In this document: positions 46,680 to 64,000 of the stretch, in pieces
Layout: each line of letters begins with the position of its first letter
Numbering within the stretch: the first letter of the stretch is position 1
Origin: a virus
Taxonomy: Duplodnaviria; Caudoviricetes
IMG/VR virus record: IMGVR_UViG_3300028549_000365
Coordinates: 64,001-128,000 of that record
Length of the DNA: 64,000 nt
Strand: one strand, 5' to 3'
Notes under the pieces: generated by a model
Database searches by the model: none
What the model was told of the DNA's origin: nothing
What the model saw: the letters and a program-made list of their open reading frames with translations, nothing else
Translations under genes and position numbers: made by a program

Positions 46680-49600
46680 TTAGCTGAAATATAGTTCAAT
46701 AGCTTTGTCTTTTAACTTATCTAAACACATACTTGTTGTGCCTATTAGTTCTGGGCTATTAACTATCCTTGCGGCAAGTGATCTTTGTGAGAAAACAGCT
46801 TCAACTTCTGTATTATCTTTAGTCTTAATATCGTAGTTGTACACTTCACCTACTGTAAACTTAATTTGATTACCGAAAATTGCTTTATCACCTATTCCCA
46901 TACCAACACCAGTTTGAATATACACTTTAACTTCTATCTTACCTTCTAATAAAGATTTACCTTCTATAGAATAACTTCCGTTAACTTTACCTGTAAACCC
47001 TGTATCTTCTACAGATTTTTTATCATACATGTTTACTAACTTTTTAACAGATTTAGACATATCTTCTAATTCACAGTTATACTTAATAAGAACTTTAGAT
47101 ACAGTACCATTAACTTTAGACTTAGGAGAAATAGATTTAATAGTGTTTAATATTTCTCTTGCTCTTTCGTCTAGTTCTTCCATATCACCATTTATTTTAT
47201 CTATATTATTAAATAGTATAGATGCGTATGTAACTTCATCGCCTACGTTAACTAAGTTTAATAAGTTATCATCACAGTTTAGAACAAACGATTTAACCTT
47301 AGTAACAACTGTTCCTAATCTATCTGAAAGTTTCTCAGATATAGCACCTGAATCCTCATAGGTCTGACTATCTTCCATTAAGGCTACATTTAAGTATGTA
47401 CCCATTTTATAAACCACTCTTTTTCTATTAAACACATCTGGTTCGAAGAACAATATATCATAAGCTATAGTATCGTCTTTAGTAAACTTTTCACCTTTAC
47501 TAAGATTAGCTACTAGTGTATGTGTATAAGCAGAACCAGCTTCTTCTTTAGTTGTCCAGCTTACTAATTTGATTTCTTCTTTAACCCCTGACTTATATTT
47601 AACAGTTATAGAGTTATCTTGCACATTCTCTACTACGCCATCTTCTTTTGCAGTTCTAACAAATTTCTTATCTACTCTTAGAGGTAATACTGATTCATAT
47701 CCAGTTCGTACATAAGGTACTCTCATTTCATTTATCGGGATTACATGTGAATTCATAATAGATGTAAAGTTAAGTCTTTTAACATCATCTGTTATACTAA
47801 ATGGAGCTAACATAGCTGATGTAGACACTAATGAACTCCATCCATCTTTCTCTACATCAACATCACCAGTTATACCTCTTGTTGAAATTATCTTAGGGTT
47901 AGCTACCATATGTGCTGTTATACCAACACTACCTGCATCTTTAGATGATTCAGATATAACTCCTATTTCAGAACTATGCATACCTCTTGTAGTCCTAACC
48001 ATAGTTAACTCTGATCTACCTTGAGCTCCTAGATAAGTTGTATCTTCAGTTTGTTTTAAAGCAGCCATAGGGTTTAAATCATCTATTAAAACAGTTGTAC
48101 TATCTTCATTTATCTTACTTAACACAGCATACGGATTTACTTCTAACTTTGACTTACTAAAGTGAGATCTATTTTTATCTAGTTTCATGGCTGTGATTAT
48201 TTCTTTGTATATTAATCCAGCTATACGCTCATAACCTCTAATAGCCATACCTTGTATATCGTTAGGATGTACGTAGTTATCATCTAGTAACAGCTCAGAA
48301 CTTCTCACTAACAAGCTTTTAAATACCGTCGGTTCTTTCATAGTTATTAGAACTTGTTCACTAAGAGGGTCTACATACATATTTTCCATAAGTTTTATTT
48401 CATTAACATATAACATAGGTAATCCTAAAGCTGTGAACACAGCTGAGAACATACTTCTACTATTTAAAGACGTAGACGGTAATATTTTTAGCTCTTTATC
48501 TATAGATAAGAATCCAGAAATTATCATATCACCTAGATCGTAATCTCGTTCTATTACATATTTAACATCTTTGAACTTAATAGCATATCTACCTGTGTTT
48601 TCAAACCTAGCGTTAGGTTCTATCTTAGTATATTTAACATTTAATAAATTAAGTAGTTTATCTAAACCATAATAATAACTTAATATTAGACATACTGGAA
48701 TATACTCTTTAAATATTTTTATGTTAGAATACTCTATAGGTGCAGCGTATCTATCTATTCCTAATAATTCGTATATGTTAGGTAACTCTACTGATTTACC
48801 ATCTTTTGTTTCTATAAGTCTATTGTCATCGGTTATAACAATATAACCTGAACCATTAGTACCTATTAACGTACCTTTCTCTTCGACAGAGTCTAAATTA
48901 ATATTGTCCATTAAAGTTGCTCTTGTGTTATATTCGAAATAGAACCTGTATGATTTAAATTTGAATGTTTTAACATATCTTGAAATCATTTGATAGTCTA
49001 AAGGTAACACAACCCCTACATTATCTACAGATACTGTAACCAAGTCTTTTACAACACCTTCTATATTAAGTTTAGTCAATTGTTTTTGGAACCAGAAACC
49101 AGCGTCATCTTTTTTATATGCTGCTTTAGTAACAAATAACTTACCATAATATGTAGATAACGCAACTTCAGTGCTAGCTATCTTTCTAATAGGTAAATCT
49201 CCTCTTTGATAACGCATAATATATTTATTACCACTGATAGCCATAACACCATCATCGTCAATAACAGGTACTTTTATTCGTATAGTAGATTTAGACCCGT
49301 TTATATTGTTTAAAGATATTTTATGTGTGTCTATTCCACCTAATATAGATTCCTCTCTAATAATCTCATGTTCTTCTATTATAAATGATTCATTTTGCAT
49401 AGCGTATATAACATTTACTATATCTTTATTAAATGTTTCTTTTAAATACTTTCCTCTAACTATACTAGTTGTATCAGCATTCATAGACTTATCTAATACA
49501 ACTATATTATCAGTTAGCTTTGTTTCTTCTGTTGTTATATCTTGTTCTTCTTTCTTATAAACTCTTAACTCAGCAAGTGATCTAGTGTCACCAATAAACG

Positions 49601-50825
49601 GAGATTTTCTAGACTTCTGTTTTTCTATCTTTTCTTTATAGCTATTGAGTTGTACTTTAGATATAAACTTATTGTTATGTAGATGTTCTACTTCAGCAGA
49701 TAATTTATCTGTATCAGTTAGGTCTGTATTAAAAACAATGTCAGGAACAACTGTTTCTAAAACAGTTTCTTCTGACTCATCTACTTCTTCATCTATAACC
49801 TCAGAATCATATACACTTAACATATCTTCTATAACTAATGTTTCATCTTCTTCGTCTGATTCTATAGCAGTAACTATACCATCTAGTGTAACAGTGTCTA
49901 TTATTGTAGATTTATCTATCTCTTCTAGTGTAGCAGGTTGTTTAGCAATAACCATATTAAAGAACAAAACTAATATTTTGAAAACAGTATCGCTTTTATA
50001 TGTTTTTAAATTAGTTTTTATTCCGTTAACATCTAATAAACTAGCTATCTGATTAAGGTTTACTGCTGTAACATTATTATTATATGTAAATAGTAATGTT
50101 ACACGTTCATAATTATTTTTCTCTATGTTAGCTTTTAATATACTTTTATCCATGTACTCTTCGTGCATAAATCTTAGTATTTCTATTAGGTTAAAGTATT
50201 TATAGTTAATAAGTGTTTCTAAATGTATTCTAGTTGTTTCACCCATATACCTATGTAACATTTGTCTAGTAGGTATTTTACTAGGTAAATCAATAGTTAT
50301 AAATACATTTCTAGGAGATGTGTTAACCATATCATTAGTTCTATGTATGGCAGAGTGCATAAGATTTTGCCATTTATAATATAAATTCATAGGGTTAGTA
50401 GTGTAAGTGTACATACTATTTAAACTACCATAATTAAAAACTAATAGTGTACTACTACCCACAGTTAAATTTTTATTCTCTCTAGTTAAGAAGTTATATT
50501 GTTTCTCATTCTTTTTTAATTTAGAAAGTATATCAGCTAGTCTGTTATTATTCTTTCTACATGTTCCTACAGTGTGTATATCACCATATTCATCAGCAGT
50601 CACAACCATAGGTTTTTTAGTTGTGACTAAATAACTTATTTTACTATCTATATATTCTACTACGTCAGATACTTTAGGCCATATCAATATGCTCTTTTCA
50701 GGAAACGCAAATATGTCACCTTTTATAACCCTTGGGTTTATTAGATGCGAAACTTTATAATTGCTTACATCTTTAAAAAACTTGTCGTATCTTAACATGT
50801 ATACTCCTTTTGTTAGATTAATCAA
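46680..50825 (-). CDS. Virion RNA polymerase beta subunit, main part (phiKZ gp178-like)
   Basis: ISGNKYIMRYQRGDLPIRK, TRGMHSSEIGVISESSKDAGSVG, NFTSIMNSH, GDKAIFGNQIKFTV correspond to RpoB conserved regions. Confidence 0.9.
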   Translation of the reverse strand: MINLTKGVYMLRYDKFFKDVSNYKVSHLINPRVIKGDIFAFPEKSILIWPKVSDVVEYIDSKISYLVTTKKPMVVTADEYGDIHTVGTCRKNNNRLADILSKLKKNEKQYNFLTRENKNLTVGSSTLLVFNYGSLNSMYTYTTNPMNLYYKWQNLMHSAIHRTNDMVNTSPRNVFITIDLPSKIPTRQMLHRYMGETTRIHLETLINYKYFNLIEILRFMHEEYMDKSILKANIEKNNYERVTLLFTYNNNVTAVNLNQIASLLDVNGIKTNLKTYKSDTVFKILVLFFNMVIAKQPATLEEIDKSTIIDTVTLDGIVTAIESDEEDETLVIEDMLSVYDSEVIDEEVDESEETVLETVVPDIVFNTDLTDTDKLSAEVEHLHNNKFISKVQLNSYKEKIEKQKSRKSPFIGDTRSLAELRVYKKEEQDITTEETKLTDNIVVLDKSMNADTTSIVRGKYLKETFNKDIVNVIYAMQNESFIIEEHEIIREESILGGIDTHKISLNNINGSKSTIRIKVPVIDDDGVMAISGNKYIMRYQRGDLPIRKIASTEVALSTYYGKLFVTKAAYKKDDAGFWFQKQLTKLNIEGVVKDLVTVSVDNVGVVLPLDYQMISRYVKTFKFKSYRFYFEYNTRATLMDNINLDSVEEKGTLIGTNGSGYIVITDDNRLIETKDGKSVELPNIYELLGIDRYAAPIEYSNIKIFKEYIPVCLILSYYYGLDKLLNLLNVKYTKIEPNARFENTGRYAIKFKDVKYVIERDYDLGDMIISGFLSIDKELKILPSTSLNSRSMFSAVFTALGLPMLYVNEIKLMENMYVDPLSEQVLITMKEPTVFKSLLVRSSELLLDDNYVHPNDIQGMAIRGYERIAGLIYKEIITAMKLDKNRSHFSKSKLEVNPYAVLSKINEDSTTVLIDDLNPMAALKQTEDTTYLGAQGRSELTMVRTTRGMHSSEIGVISESSKDAGSVGITAHMVANPKIISTRGITGDVDVEKDGWSSLVSTSAMLAPFSITDDVKRLNFTSIMNSHVIPINEMRVPYVRTGYESVLPLRVDKKFVRTAKEDGVVENVQDNSITVKYKSGVKEEIKLVSWTTKEEAGSAYTHTLVANLSKGEKFTKDDTIAYDILFFEPDVFNRKRVVYKMGTYLNVALMEDSQTYEDSGAISEKLSDRLGTVVTKVKSFVLNCDDNLLNLVNVGDEVTYASILFNNIDKINGDMEELDERAREILNTIKSISPKSKVNGTVSKVLIKYNCELEDMSKSVKKLVNMYDKKSVEDTGFTGKVNGSYSIEGKSLLEGKIEVKVYIQTGVGMGIGDKAIFGNQIKFTVGEVYNYDIKTKDNTEVEAVFSQRSLAARIVNSPELIGTTSMCLDKLKDKAIELYFS

Positions 50826-59086: not shown

Positions 59087-60019
59087 TTATTTAATTTTAA
59101 TATACTCTTCTTCTAATCTATTCATTAAAATATCTTTAGTAAGTTCTTCAACTGGAATCTCATTTAACATACGTTGCAACACGATGTTGTCTTCTTCACC
59201 ATTCCATACTTTAATATAAGTACCTTCTTGGTAACCATTGTTTCTTCTAAAGATGTTTAACATATTTTTACCTAAGTAAAGTTTGTATATATCTTTAAAT
59301 GCAAAGTTATGTTGTTCTTCCATATAGATCATAAGTAATAATAATCCAACTATACATTGCTCTGTGTTAAACACTACCGCAAGCAGTCTTCTTATTTTAG
59401 GTATGATATTGTTAGGATCAACATTATCACCAGCATCATGATCAGCATGCATATCATTTATTGTATAGATAACATCGTTAAAGTTACTGAATAGTTCTAC
59501 AGTTCGTTCTACAGCTAACTCTCTAGTTAGTTCAACATTATTTTCTTTATAGAGATCTATAAACCCTTTAATAACATCACTTATCAAGAAGTGCCATACA
59601 TCAACTATTTCTAGTTTAATATTCTCGTAATCGATTTCAGTATCAATTTTACTCCAGTGTTTCCAAGGAGTACTTTTTAACATCTCCATCACTTCATCGT
59701 TAATACATGTTTTCCAGCAAATGTCTTTACCTTTATCAGTAATGTTGTTTACCCAACAAGTACCATTAGTAATATCATTAAGATCCCATTGTAATTTAAC
59801 CATTACTTCTAGCATACCTATATCTACAAGCATTTTAGTAGGTCCTACTGGTACCTCATTAAGTGATTCATCTGATTGCGTTTCTTCCTCAGTTTTATCC
59901 ATTAGTCGTTCTACCATTACACCACCAAGCATAGCTCCTATAGCAGCTGTTTCCACTTCACCAGCAGGTGTAGTACATTCTACATTTTCATTTGTTGTTA
60001 CTTCTTTTTCTTCTAACAT
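59087..60019 (-). CDS. dut: Dimeric all-alpha dUTPase with an acidic N-terminal extension
   Basis: Q..LN, PWKHW, KLEIVDVWHF, YLGKNMLNIFRRNNGYQEGTYIKVWNGEEDN, matching the Campylobacter/Leishmania-type dUTPase family. Confidence 0.88.
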   Translation of the reverse strand: MLEEKEVTTNENVECTTPAGEVETAAIGAMLGGVMVERLMDKTEEETQSDESLNEVPVGPTKMLVDIGMLEVMVKLQWDLNDITNGTCWVNNITDKGKDICWKTCINDEVMEMLKSTPWKHWSKIDTEIDYENIKLEIVDVWHFLISDVIKGFIDLYKENNVELTRELAVERTVELFSNFNDVIYTINDMHADHDAGDNVDPNNIIPKIRRLLAVVFNTEQCIVGLLLLMIYMEEQHNFAFKDIYKLYLGKNMLNIFRRNNGYQEGTYIKVWNGEEDNIVLQRMLNEIPVEELTKDILMNRLEEEYIKIK

Positions 60020-60092: not shown

Positions 60093-60590
60093 TTACATGC
60101 ATTTACTATCTATATATTTCCATATACCTTTTTTCTTCTTAATAGCTGTTTTCTCTAATTCATATAGATCATAGATAACTTCTCTAGGTAAGTTCTTATA
60201 ATCTTCTACTACGCCATAACCATTACGTATTATATCTTTATTCACATACTCTATATAAATAACTGGTCTATCTCTAAAGTCTACATCTACTATAGTATAA
60301 GTTAAGTTCTTTTTACTATAAATACTTTTAAATAAATATTCTTTAGCATTCATACCTAGTGTATGCATAAGTTCTTTATCTATGTTACAAGATATAACAT
60401 CTTTCTTAAATTTAGCGTTTCTAAACGACTCAGGGGTATCTATTCCTGCTAATCTATAATTACGTATAGTGTTATTGATATCTATCTTAATAGTGTCTCC
60501 ATCTACTATCTTTAATATCTTGTTAGTGGATATAGTTTCACTATGTGTTAATGAGATTAATATTGTTATTATTAATAAGTATTTAAGCAT
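60093..60590 (-). CDS. Thermonuclease (SNase family) with a signal peptide
   Basis: IVDGDTI, RLAGIDTPES, DFRDR, KKKGIW; hydrophobic N-terminus. Confidence 0.85.
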   Translation of the reverse strand: MLKYLLIITILISLTHSETISTNKILKIVDGDTIKIDINNTIRNYRLAGIDTPESFRNAKFKKDVISCNIDKELMHTLGMNAKEYLFKSIYSKKNLTYTIVDVDFRDRPVIYIEYVNKDIIRNGYGVVEDYKNLPREVIYDLYELEKTAIKKKKGIWKYIDSKCM

Positions 60591-60729
60591 GTATTTCCTT
60601 GTTATATTACTGTGTACTATTTTATTTAATAGTATTAGATTCTGTGATATTATTATTATAATAAATTAGAGAGACTTCGTCTCTCTTAAGTTCTTTAATT
60701 TATTTGTTTCTTCCTAAATAACATAGCTC

Positions 60730-60861
60730 ATTAGAAGTGACAGTACACACCGTTCGCTCTCCTCGCCTGCTTCCTACAACTAACATACTGCTCGCGGTCC
60801 TCTCCCCTGAAGAAAACGTCTTCAGTCGTGGTGTCGGATAAGAGTGTACTGCACTTCCAAT
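60730..60861 (-). ncRNA. Candidate structured non-coding RNA or regulatory DNA element of unknown class
   Basis: GC-rich island in AT-rich intergenic DNA. Closing stem attggaagtgcagtacac / gtgtactgtcacttctaat (the mismatch is a G-U pair on the minus strand), inner hairpin ctgaaga-cgttt-tcttcag. Confidence 0.35.
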
Positions 60862-61177
60862 AGAGAATGCTAAGACCTAAGTCTCATTAGTATAGAACCC
60901 ATAGTTATACTCTATCAAAAAGAGTAAGCTGTATATAATTTTATTTTGTTAATAACTTCGTCTATATTCTTACCTACTACCGTTAGTTAAGCCAGAGTCC
61001 CACCGTATAGATAGCTTGTAAACATGAATTAATGTAGAAGTTATTATTATTATTTATATATTATGCTCAGATAATAAGATATAGTTATATTTAACTTCCA
61101 ATATGTTATAAACGTATATTATATGTGTAGAATGTATAATAGCTAAATACATTACTATAAACTAAAGGAGAAGTATT

Positions 61178-61789
61178 ATGATACTTATATTTGACGAAAT
61201 TGAAATGTGTGGTGATCCACTATCTGGATTAACATATGGACTTATGGAAGAGATTAACGGTATAGAACATCCAATTACAAGAAGTTGGAGAATTAGAGAA
61301 CAAGATAGTAAAAGAGAAGTATGTGATGTATGTGAAGGTACATATGTACCTAATAGAAAAACAGCTGTTAATAACATATGTCCAGCATGTAAACTTTTGA
61401 AAGAGAAACATAATACTTGGTTCTCTTGTGATTTCGACACATCTTTATATTACATAGAGTATGATATATTAGAACAAGAAGCTAGAGACATACTCTATGA
61501 AGAAGAAGTTAGAAAAGCTATATATTTAATACTTGATGAAGCTATACCAGTACGCGAGAATGCTATCATACGAATGAGACTAGGTCTACTCGATGATGAG
61601 AGCGAGCGATCATTAGAAGAGATAGCTGATGCCTTAAATATAACACAAGGGCGAGTTAGACAACTTGAATCTAACGGTTTAAAAAGGTTAGGTCATACTA
61701 GAGGCTTTAAACACCGTGTTAACATAAGCTCTAATGATAATAAAAGATATGTTACATTATTAGAACTAGCTATAGATAGGTATAACTAA
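61178..61789 (+). CDS. Zinc-ribbon plus sigma-70 region 4 (HTH) protein
   Basis: CDVC...CPAC; RENAIIRMRLGLLDDESERSLEEIADALNITQGRVRQLESNGLKRL matches sigma70 region 4; no region 2 recognisable. Confidence 0.75.
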   Translation: MILIFDEIEMCGDPLSGLTYGLMEEINGIEHPITRSWRIREQDSKREVCDVCEGTYVPNRKTAVNNICPACKLLKEKHNTWFSCDFDTSLYYIEYDILEQEARDILYEEEVRKAIYLILDEAIPVRENAIIRMRLGLLDDESERSLEEIADALNITQGRVRQLESNGLKRLGHTRGFKHRVNISSNDNKRYVTLLELAIDRYN

Positions 61790-62757: not shown

Positions 62758-64000
62758 ATGAAAATAGTTAAATTTGTATTACATAGATACAAGAGAGTAT
62801 TTCTTAGTGACATTGAAACTATAGAATATGAACCTAAAGATAACTTACAGATTATTCTAGGTAGTAATGGAAGTGGTAAAAGTAGTTTACTAAGTCAGTT
62901 GAATCCTTTACCAGGTAATTTAACTAAAGACTATAGAGATGGTGGTTATAAATATATAGAGATAGAACATGCAGGTAAGTATTATAAACTTATGAGTGGT
63001 GTTAACGGTACTAAGAGTCATAGTTTTATAATGGATGGTATAGAATATAACATAGGTGGGACTATAAGTGTACAAGCAGAGCTAGTTAGAAATCATTTTA
63101 ACATAGATGTTAATAAACTTAATGTTATAATAGGGTTAAATAAGTTTACGAATATGAGTCCTACGGAAAGAAAAAGATGGATAACTGAGATAAGTGACGT
63201 TGATTATAGTTATAGTATAGGTGTTTATAATAAACTTAAAAGTAGACATAGAGATATATTAGGCGGTATTAAGTTAACACAAAGTAATATAGTTAAACTT
63301 GAGAGTGAGACTCTAAGTGATAGTGAGATAGATAAGTTAAACTTAGATATAAAATATGTTAGTGGTTTAATAGAACACATACTTAAACTTATAAGTAATG
63401 TTACTGTTAAAGTAGATATAAATAAAACTATAGATGAGATAGGTGTTTTAACCAATCGTCTTAACAGTAATAACATAGATATGGATGTTAAGTTTATAGA
63501 ACAACAGATAACTACAGAGAATGTTAGGATAGAGGGGTTTAGCAAACGCATAGAGACCATAACTAATAATATTGATATGTTGGGTAAAGTAAGTAGTTTA
63601 GACATCGTAGAGGTTGATAATAAACTAGATGATGTTAACAATAGAATAAGATATATAGAGAGTGATATTTATCTTAAAGAAGACTTAGGTGTTCTGTATA
63701 GATATATGTTAGATAACTATAGTGAAATAGTTGGATTAGTTACTGAACTAGGAGAATATAGGTTAGATAGTAATCCAACTATATATAACGGATTAGTTAG
63801 TAAACTAGACGAACTTAAGAACAGTAGAAATAGACTTAACAATAGTTTATTAGTTCTAGATAGGGATATTAAAAACCAAGAAGATCTTTATAAAGATGAT
63901 AACAAGATAGTATGTGTAAACTGTAATCATACATGGCATAAAGGATATGACCCTAATCGACTAGATAACTTTAAAAAAGAGAAAGAAAACTTACTAACTA
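62758..64000 (+). CDS. sbcC: SbcC/Rad50-like SMC ATPase, 3'-truncated by the window edge (not in the ORF track)
   Basis: ATG at 62758 after AAGGA. Reads MKIVKFVLHRYKR...ILGSNGSGKSS (Walker A), coiled coil, and an in-frame zinc hook CVNC near 63913. Confidence 0.85.
   Translation, partial: MKIVKFVLHRYKRVFLSDIETIEYEPKDNLQIILGSNGSGKSSLLSQLNPLPGNLTKDYRDGGYKYIEIEHAGKYYKLMSGVNGTKSHSFIMDGIEYNIGGTISVQAELVRNHFNIDVNKLNVIIGLNKFTNMSPTERKRWITEISDVDYSYSIGVYNKLKSRHRDILGGIKLTQSNIVKLESETLSDSEIDKLNLDIKYVSGLIEHILKLISNVTVKVDINKTIDEIGVLTNRLNSNNIDMDVKFIEQQITTENVRIEGFSKRIETITNNIDMLGKVSSLDIVEVDNKLDDVNNRIRYIESDIYLKEDLGVLYRYMLDNYSEIVGLVTELGEYRLDSNPTIYNGLVSKLDELKNSRNRLNNSLLVLDRDIKNQEDLYKDDNKIVCVNCNHTWHKGYDPNRLDNFKKEKENLLT

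Follow-up and report, generated by a model that had tools for sequence, protein, structure and literature searches.

Why would a giant phage that has RNA polymerases (RNAPs) of its own carry a single domain of a bacterial sigma factor? This question is raised by a gene in a stretch of 64,000 nucleotides (nt) from an uncultured phage (positions 64,001 to 128,000 of IMG/VR record IMGVR_UViG_3300028549_000365; the whole stretch is called the window here). The gene, at positions 61178-61789 on the plus strand, encodes a protein of 203 amino acids (aa), P0001, and a structured element lies upstream of it. The original prediction, made from the letters of the window alone, took P0001 to be the stand-alone region 4 of a primary sigma factor fused to a zinc ribbon, in a phage with its own RNAPs. 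The last point was confirmed by a phiKZ-type RNAP beta-like subunit (phrog_3148, E 0) encoded in the window, which also encodes a phiKZ-type DNA polymerase, a tail sheath and virion proteins. The source record is 222 kb long, is estimated to be 83% complete and has a GC content of 32%, and the phage is a chimallivirus, the giant nucleus-forming type of phage with its own RNAPs. We asked what P0001 consists of, where it came from and what it may do in the infected cell. Coordinates of all features are given in Table 1.

Domains of P0001

Residues 124-171 of P0001 matched the Pfam family Sigma70_r4 (PF04545) at 44.1 bits (cut-off 24.1) and an E-value of 1.4e-11, and PHROG 351, annotated as RNA polymerase sigma factor, matched the protein with an E-value of 1.3e-9. 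Sigma70_r4 was the sole Pfam match, and regions 2 and 3 were not found in the protein. Sigma70_r2 was not found in the whole 222-kb record at E<=1; control genomes did give matches. Because region 2 was undetected both in the protein and in the 222-kb genome, P0001 is not a sigma factor.

In front of region 4, four cysteines (C49, C52, C68 and C71, in residues 49-71) form the pattern CxxC-x15-CxxC. When residues 40-81 alone were compared by hhalign with the zinc-ribbon profile (A3) of the family described below, the match had a probability of 96.7% and an E-value of 4e-10, so the cysteine pattern is not due to chance. An AlphaFold model made with the family alignment as input had a predicted local distance difference test (pLDDT) score of 78-90 in the ribbon and 86-98 in region 4, and the first 44 or so and the last 25 residues were unstructured. 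The top fold matches of the model in the PDB were domain 4 of SigA/RpoD, with a root-mean-square deviation (rmsd) of 1.0-1.4 Å over about 70 residues. Taken together, these data indicate that P0001 is a stand-alone sigma domain 4 plus a zinc ribbon, in agreement with both parts of the predicted fusion.

In a Pfam scan the ribbon fell into no family, either in P0001 or in 12 other family members, and the DksA/TraR C4 zinc finger (PF01258 or a comparable profile) gave no match at E<=1 in the same proteins. Searches of the ESM Atlas and BFVD returned generic region-4 neighbours only, and the top BFVD match had 24% identity and an rmsd of 26 Å.

The ZnR-sigma4 family

P0001 had been treated as a singleton, and a word-indexed search of 5.8 billion clusters did return only P0001 itself. 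Exhaustive searching of 1.84 billion representatives with phmmer yielded 823 matches, nearly all confined to region 4; among the best 150 of these, 23 besides P0001 carried a CxxC...CxxC ribbon before region 4. A profile of 12 typical members then recovered about 46 clusters that spanned at least 87% of the profile, with E-values from 1e-61 to 1e-25. These clusters, named ZnR-sigma4 here after the zinc ribbon and the sigma part, hold 1-3 sequences each, all of them metagenomic, and none bears a functional name. The N-terminal consensus of the family is M-x-C-x-K-R-x-x-C-N-V-C-x-G-x-F-K-M-x-R-G-C-x-L-E-K-R-C-P-A-C-R-x-L.

BLAST alignments of 141-166 residues that span both domains linked P0001 to five members; these alignments and the hhalign match agree in giving P0001 the N-terminal CxxC-x14-16-CxxC ribbon of the family. 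Its closest kin were P0002 (427 aa, on a 180-kb contig) and P0007 (518 aa). Other members were found on contigs of 83 kb (P0030), 57 kb (P0040) and 28 kb (P0179). These results show that P0001 is a divergent member of a recurrent family and not an orphan.

Among 50,697 phage records in GenBank, tblastn with P0001 and blastn with its 6-kb neighbourhood gave no match, and a typical member, P0050, had matches confined to region 4 of sigma factors, from phages or contaminants, none with a query coverage of 80% or more. The ribbon motif GCxLEKRCP was also sought in 185,579 species genomes of bacteria and archaea, and no relative turned up. In IMG/VR, ribbon motifs found only two member contigs, in addition to an 18-kb fragment that encodes P0002. 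Within the collections and methods searched, the family thus looks phage-specific and uncultured.

Origin of the sigma part

We next compared the sigma part with RpoD, the primary sigma factor, of many bacteria. RpoD genes taken from genomes showed that the C-terminal stretch of RpoD in Campylobacterota has a nine-residue loop, GLLEDESDRTLEE, with the signature RVRQIESSAIKKLKHPKVGR, whereas RpoD of other phyla has an eight-residue loop with RIRQIEAKALRKLRHPSRS. The family consensus and P0001, with the loop GLLDDESERSLEE, are of the Campylobacterota type. In 25 of 26 members, identity to Campylobacterota RpoD (range 32-82%) exceeded that to any of 73 RpoDs from other phyla; for region 4 of P0001 the values were 45% to Campylobacterota RpoD and 31% to the best of the 73 others.

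A maximum-likelihood tree of region 4, built on about 70 columns and with unreliable internal branches, placed all 25 members that it included and seven of seven Campylobacterota RpoDs in one clade with a support of 0.94. Only one of 71 other RpoDs, a long-branch sequence, intruded into this clade. One member fell inside the RpoDs of Arcobacteraceae, and P0001 grouped with P0002 and P0007. Identity, tree clade and loop therefore agree in assigning a Campylobacterota-type domain 4 to P0001.

In a profile-profile comparison of the family with Campylobacterota RpoD, only the last 80 residues aligned, with 53% identity and an E-value of 1.4e-29, and the two ended at the identical C-terminal residue. 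The first database matches outside the family were fragments of RpoD labelled as Campylobacter jejuni, C. coli and Helicobacter. Because the identities, the clade, the profile alignment and the next-best matches all point to Campylobacterota RpoD, the sequence data show that the sigma module is the captured 3' end of the rpoD gene of the probable host clade, and this end may have been refreshed by recombination more than once. They also uphold the claim that region 4 is of the primary sigma factor type, the module that binds the -35 element and the flap. By the same comparison, region 4 of P0001 is independent evidence for a Campylobacterota host of this uncultured jumbo phage.

We considered whether the linker between ribbon and domain 4 could be a degenerate region 3. 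Two members had weak matches to Pfam Sigma70_r3 (E 0.011), but this candidate was rejected because only the last 80 residues of RpoD aligned and the linker was predicted to be disordered.

Conservation in the family and divergence of P0001

Positions of the sigma part (E. coli numbering) with a conservation of 0.76-1.0 in the family were L548, L551, R554, E555, R562, G564, L573, E585, R586, R588, Q589, K596-K599, P601, L607 and Y610. They fall in the recognition helix that reads the -35 element and in helices H1, H2 and H5. Conservation thus extends over all of domain 4 and is not confined to its helix-turn-helix. The parts of sigma domain 4 that contact the flap are H1, H2 and H5, and the activator patch comprises residues 593-603 (PMC2988021). 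In the model of P0050, the ribbon had a pLDDT of 82-89 and domain 4, including H5, of 92-98; between them a 55-residue stretch had a pLDDT of about 50, suggesting that this linker is probably disordered.

The ribbon of most members contains six cysteines, as C-x5-C-x2-C twice, and its mean net charge is +5.6. Six invariant cysteines (for example at residues 3-31 of P0038) are two beyond what a simple zinc ribbon needs, and the extra pair might serve a second metal site or take part in a cluster or a disulfide.

P0001 differs from typical members in several respects. Its recognition helix in region 4.2 reads TQGRVRQLE where the family has TRERVRQIE, so that R584Q and E585G are changed and R586, R588 and Q589 are kept. 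P0001 does not have the six-cysteine, strongly basic ribbon of the family and lies on a divergent branch with P0002 and P0007. Its linker is far shorter than the disordered one of about 55 residues in typical members. In addition, P0001 has an N-terminal extension of about 44 residues, which is missing from most members and aligns weakly to the N-termini of P0002 and P0007, and a 25-residue tail that runs past the end point common to RpoD and most members; the envelope of the RpoD C-terminus hidden Markov model on P0001 was residues 96-201. By sequence, P0001 is an atypical member and the most divergent one of the family.

With such divergence, the copy of the gene in this phage could be decaying, or a neutral passenger, and have no current function. 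The protein has only 45% identity to RpoD in region 4 and carries R584Q and E585G; its H5 is degenerate, its ribbon is non-basic with four cysteines, and both termini are extended. There is no close homologue for a test of selection. Against this, 203 codons have stayed open in a genome of 32% GC behind a good ribosome binding site, P0001 retains its four zinc ligands and the residues that define the fold, and it forms a subgroup with P0002 and P0007, its relatives from jumbo phages. We consider a passenger copy very unlikely.

Genomic contexts of the relatives

No conserved neighbour gene was found across the window and the loci L002, L003, L006 and L087-L095, although tiny partners of the RsoA kind could escape detection. 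Because the contexts share no neighbouring gene, the module travels alone among unrelated phages that have only the host clade in common. These phages include a chimallivirus, phages with a T7-type RNAP, a phage with a giant N4-type virion protein and a 39-kb phage without a detectable RNAP.

The locus of P0002 (L006) is an 18-kb fragment, estimated to be 7% of a jumbo genome, whose DNA polymerase is 43% identical to that of the window phage. L090 encodes a 772-aa T7-type RNAP (PF00940, over the cut-off) 2 kb upstream of the family gene. In L089 and L091, the family gene lies directly behind two adjacent open reading frames (ORFs) that correspond to the N- and C-terminal parts of PF00940. The T7-type RNAP of L091 is thus apparently split, with a gap of about 650 nt between the ORFs, and it could be an enzyme of two subunits like N4 RNAPII, or be interrupted by an inserted element or a frameshift. 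A 61-kb genome, G002, is syntenic with L090 and encodes a protein of 2401 aa, the C-terminus of which matches the PHROG of N4-type virion RNAPs. Only the last 110 positions of this PHROG are matched, and the protein resembles no solved structure, so that its assignment as an N4-type virion RNAP is tentative.

The fifth context, G001 (39.5 kb, estimated complete), encodes a portal, a terminase, a capsid protein, RecT, a methylase and a 1908-aa giant protein, which is a polyvalent LPD38 protein. The family gene is on the opposite strand, within the head module. An RNAP was not detected in G001 by profile and protein searches, which can overlook very divergent enzymes. For this reason a universal link of the family to phage RNAPs, which we also considered, was rejected: G001 is complete at 39 kb and has no detectable RNAP.

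These contexts bear on a possible role of the protein as an accessory or specificity factor of phage RNAPs, namely of the multisubunit virion or non-virion RNAP (nvRNAP) in the window phage and of single-subunit RNAPs elsewhere. A phage RNAP is encoded in at least three, perhaps four, of the five informative contexts, and in L089 and L091 the family gene directly follows the RNAP gene. However, the polymerases belong to unrelated classes, which makes one docking mode unlikely; region 4 tracks the RpoD of the host and not a phage partner; and the complete phage G001 has no detectable RNAP. The nvRNAPs of phiKZ and AR9 lack the flap-tip helix to which sigma-4 binds (PMC12809450), and chimallivirus RNAPs do not stably bind bacterial sigma (PMC13282480). 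Because of these two properties, and because members are also found beside single-subunit RNAPs or where no RNAP was detected, the phage's own polymerases would be poor partners, and a role as their cofactor is highly improbable.

L089 and L091 differed in one more respect. Their DNA was 98-99% identical on both sides of the family gene, through its first 32 codons and again from codon 205, whereas the segment in between, encoding the linker and sigma-4, was just 45% identical at the protein level. The difference is an allele replacement, and the swap has the pattern expected of a contested or host-matched module. A gene for an AP2/treble-clef zinc finger of the homing-endonuclease type lies immediately downstream.

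In G001 we noticed a divergent control region in which one strand carries a perfect TTGACA-18-TATAAT promoter, extended by TG, and the opposite strand has TTGACA-18-TACAAT. The relatives of this phage suggest that its hosts are Campylobacterota, a clade whose own promoters reportedly have no -35 box.

Possible role at the host RNA polymerase

What could such a module do? We tentatively favour the reading that the family is a sigma-domain-4 mimic aimed at the flap of the host RNAP, at -35-type DNA or at both. The target would be the host RNAP and not the phage's own polymerases; host RNAP and host-type promoters are suggested because the module has been kept near RpoD domain 4 through the last helix and to the exact end. 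Conservation across the whole domain and the spread over phage types with nothing but the host clade in common speak for this reading as well. The sigma-4 module would occupy the place of domain 4 of host sigma-70 at the beta-flap tip, on -35-type DNA or at both. Host domain 4 would then be displaced or out-competed, and transcription that depends on domain 4, the flap or the -35 element would be switched off or re-aimed.

Free sigma-4 binds the flap weakly relative to tethered sigma-4. Because a free domain 4 would compete weakly with the tethered one, we propose that the ribbon and the linker give a second point of attachment, either to nucleic acid or to an adjacent RNAP surface; the very basic ribbon points to nucleic acid. 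The modelled architecture, with a ribbon, a disordered linker of about 55 residues and sigma-4, fits a two-site binder. In this chimallivirus, where by analogy with phiKZ the host RNAP would not be needed, the likeliest outcome would be a dampening of host transcription in the cytoplasm. Because two -35-reading residues and the basicity of the ribbon are lost, P0001 may keep only the RNAP-binding half of the activity, or it may be drifting. Precedents exist: the contact between sigma-4 and the flap is a takeover target of the phage proteins AsiA and gp33 (PMC2988021), gp39 (PMC3950348) and p7 (PMC3985653), and host-takeover factors are present in some jumbo phages that encode RNAPs (PMC13282480).

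Several points weigh against the proposed mimicry. P0001 itself has lost two -35-reading residues by R584Q and E585G and has no equivalents of L607 and Y610. Its last helix has lost its hydrophobic residues, and in its ribbon there are four cysteines instead of six, with a net charge of +1 compared with the mean of +5.6. The conserved hydrophobic positions of the family may simply form the core of the fold. The mimic would need the extra affinity supplied by the ribbon, since free sigma-4 binds the flap weakly. The allele swap between L089 and L091 could have been driven by gene conversion through the adjacent AP2/treble-clef gene, with no arms race. The sigma-70 promoters of Campylobacter and Helicobacter have a periodic A/T pattern and extended -10 boxes but no clear -35 box (PMC3656092). 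A -35 or flap decoy would inhibit little at promoters of this type; the actual hosts are other Campylobacterota. Finally, a blanket inhibitor of host RNAP would harm G001, which is a complete phage with no detectable RNAP, and a phage of this kind could tolerate a selective effect only. For G001, a switch away from -35-dependent early promoters, like that of T4, is conceivable because of its perfect TTGACA-18-TATAAT promoters with a TG extension.

The main rival to mimicry is that the protein is a plain sequence-specific DNA-binding regulator of phage genes, which would act through the helix-turn-helix (HTH) of sigma-4 and perhaps the basic ribbon and would not occupy the flap. In its favour, conservation is 85-96% at R586, R588 and Q589 of the recognition helix, the average ribbon charge of +5.6 is strongly basic, late activators of the LtrA type, which resemble region 4, are proven (PMC3753634), small proteins with a Sigma70_r4 domain are common in uncultured phages, and the perfect promoters of G001 could be occupied by such a protein. 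However, the similarity to RpoD, which reaches 82% and runs through H5 to the exact C-terminus, is far above what a generic HTH needs, and no fixed position relative to late or packaging genes was seen. Moreover, a regulator with the specificity of host sigma-4 would compete with the holoenzyme anyway, so that this explanation would merge with mimicry of host domain 4. We regard a plain regulator as rather unlikely.

The original prediction had offered a decoy, a repressor of host -35 elements and a specificity factor. A role at the host RNAP is still the most economical reading, as region 4 is of the RpoD type of the host clade, but sequence cannot separate the three options. We can also imagine a more elaborate version, in which the family is a portable, trans-acting sigma domain 4 with the build of a miniature TFB/TFIIB, in which a flexible linker joins zinc ribbon and HTH. 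The ribbon would dock by the RNA-exit channel, at the beta-prime dock or zinc-binding domain, and the stolen sigma-4 would take the flap tip, so that unrelated Campylobacterota phages could evict or replace host domain 4 with a piece taken from the host itself. We consider this version unlikely. WhiB proteins bind sigma-4 in actinobacteria, and by analogy the six-cysteine pair of the family might hold a redox-sensitive metal cluster.

Comparison with known systems

The closest known relative is domain 4 of Campylobacterota RpoD, with which the family is homologous over the last 80 residues, sharing the fold, the nine-residue loop, the RVRQIESSAIKKLKHP signature and the C-terminal end. In contrast to RpoD, the family has none of regions 1-3, and hence no binding to the beta-prime clamp helices and no melting of the -10 element, and has a zinc ribbon instead.

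With T4 gp33 and AsiA, gp39 of Thermus phage P23-45 and p7 of Xanthomonas phage Xp10, the family would share the site of action, the beta-flap tip or the place of sigma domain 4. It would also share the outcome, that is, -35-dependent initiation that is lost or re-aimed (PMC2988021, PMC3950348, PMC3985653). The folds and sequences of these proteins are unrelated to the family; a phage with a ZnR-sigma4 protein would instead employ a copy of sigma-4. The LtrA family of Gram-positive temperate phages is likewise small, has a region-4-like HTH as its sole recognisable part and has a proven role in transcription (PMC3753634). LtrA, described as having 'limited similarity' to region 4, is encoded upstream of terS and carries no zinc ribbon, whereas the ZnR-sigma4 proteins contain a near-copy of RpoD domain 4 and have no fixed position. 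The P0001 gene does not lie directly upstream of terS or a late operon but sits between the pair of nuclease and nucleoside triphosphate pyrophosphatase genes and the gene for an SbcC-like ATPase.

A sigma factor may also be split between two proteins, as in T4 gp55/gp33. The family could accordingly be the region-4 half of a split sigma, with an unrecognised region-2-like phage partner, and the two halves on host core RNAP would read phage promoters. Domain 4 is intact in most members. Polypeptides with region 4 only that associate with RNAP do exist on mobile elements and in phages (bioRxiv 10.64898/2026.10.01.756105); Sig7/Sig8 of Tn916 and SigO/RsoA of B. subtilis resemble the family in this respect but need an adjacent region-2-like partner, and none was detectable for the family. 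Sigma70_r2 was absent from the 222-kb genome at E<=1, and the compared loci had no conserved neighbour, whereas known split sigmas are encoded by adjacent genes. In addition, chimalliviruses transcribe without the host RNAP (PMC13282480). A split sigma is, for these reasons, improbable.

Unnamed proteins described as 'Sigma70_r4 domain containing' in uncultured phages, and bacterial proteins described as 'sigma factor-like helix-turn-helix DNA-binding protein', are also small, are widespread in databases and have region 4 only. The family ribbon was not seen in them, the best BFVD match being the distant one given above. Proteins with region 4 only are thus known already (LtrA, Sig7 of Tn916 and many unnamed ones of phages and bacteria). 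What is new is the ribbon, which lies outside Pfam models, the derivation of the sigma part from the primary sigma factor of the host clade, with up to 82% identity, the spread of the module across unrelated phage types including a chimallivirus, and the allele swap.

The known phage attackers of sigma-4 and the beta-flap are non-sigma proteins, and the family appears to use a stolen host sigma domain 4 with a new ribbon. If binding is confirmed, this would be a clear case of takeover by self-mimicry. The family would then offer a handle on transcription in Campylobacterota, whose promoters reportedly have no -35 box though their sigma keeps the -35-reading residues, and, being a dominant-negative sigma fragment, might be used as a natural tool. 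Confirmation would also mean that a nucleus-forming phage with its own polymerases still interferes with host transcription.

The upstream structured element

A structured element beside the P0001 gene had been predicted, and it is real: the core folded better than shuffled controls (z = -2.7), and the element forms an island with a GC content of 0.48-0.58 against a background of 0.2-0.3. It had been suggested that this RNA and P0001 form a two-part module and act together, much as 6S RNA engages region 4.2 of sigma-70. The fold and the fact that element and gene adjoin in this one genome are consistent with such a module. However, blastn and nhmmer found no copy of the element elsewhere in the genome or in 10 family loci, and in Rfam there was no match at the gathering score or at E<=10, 6S RNA included. 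The P0002 locus in L006, the closest relative, has a plain intergenic gap of 135 nt upstream of the gene, and the upstream gaps of the remaining relatives are short as well, from about 66 to 280 nt. Within the relatives available, therefore, the element and the protein are not linked. A terminator-like hairpin at the left edge also hints that the element is read on the opposite strand, and it may be transcribed on the minus strand. The two-part module was not borne out, and a joint action of P0001 and this RNA is barely credible.

Neighbouring genes

Upstream of the P0001 gene and divergent from it lie genes for a nuclease and a MazG/dUTPase-like enzyme. Scans for sigma-70-type promoters around the P0001 gene gave nothing that exceeded shuffled sequences; the Shine-Dalgarno sequence was read directly.

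Table 1. Positions of the features discussed, in the window (numbers only) and in the loci of relatives (with locus name)
Feature	Position	Strand	Remarks
phiKZ-type RNAP beta-like subunit	46680-50825	-
MazG/dUTPase-like nucleoside triphosphate pyrophosphohydrolase	59087-60019	-	310 aa; divergent, upstream of P0001 gene
Endonuclease/nuclease of phages (PHROG match)	60093-60590	-	165 aa; hydrophobic N-terminus; divergent, upstream of P0001 gene
Upstream structured element	60660-61075		GC-rich island with long stem; core 60730-60861; fold z = -2.7 on the plus strand against shuffled controls
Terminator-like hairpin	60668-60686	both	bidirectional; left edge of upstream element
Shine-Dalgarno sequence AAGGAG	61165..61170	+	7 nt 5' of ATG
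P0001 ORF (ZnR-sigma4 protein)	61178..61789	+	203 aa; stop codon within span
N-terminal extension, residues 1-43	61178..61306	+	predicted disordered, pLDDT 47-51
Zinc-ribbon domain, residues 44-78	61307..61411	+	C49/C52 + C68/C71; pLDDT 78-90
Short linker, residues 79-95	61412..61462	+	low pLDDT at residues 81-86
Sigma domain 4, residues 96-178	61463..61711	+	region 4.1 helices, region 4.2 helix-turn-helix, degenerate last helix
C-terminal tail, residues 179-203	61712..61786	+	low-confidence helix, pLDDT 40-50
Two genes 3' of P0001	61793-62086, 62097-62678	+	no family matches
SbcC/Rad50-like ATPase	62758-63999	+	P-loop GSNGSGKSS; continues beyond window edge
Apparently split T7-type RNAP (PF00940), two ORFs	L091:108-1325, L091:1979-2641
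Replaced segment (linker and sigma-4)	L089:953-1470, L091:2803-3314
AP2/treble-clef zinc-finger gene	L091:3435-3887
Divergent control region	G001:37680-37835 (L097:17680-17835)	both	TTGACA-18-TATAAT with TG extension on one strand, TTGACA-18-TACAAT on the other

On the other side, the P0001 gene is followed on the same strand by three genes with gaps of 3-80 nt, the last of which encodes the SbcC/Rad50-like ATPase. This arrangement makes the four genes a candidate for a single transcription unit, and they may indeed form one.

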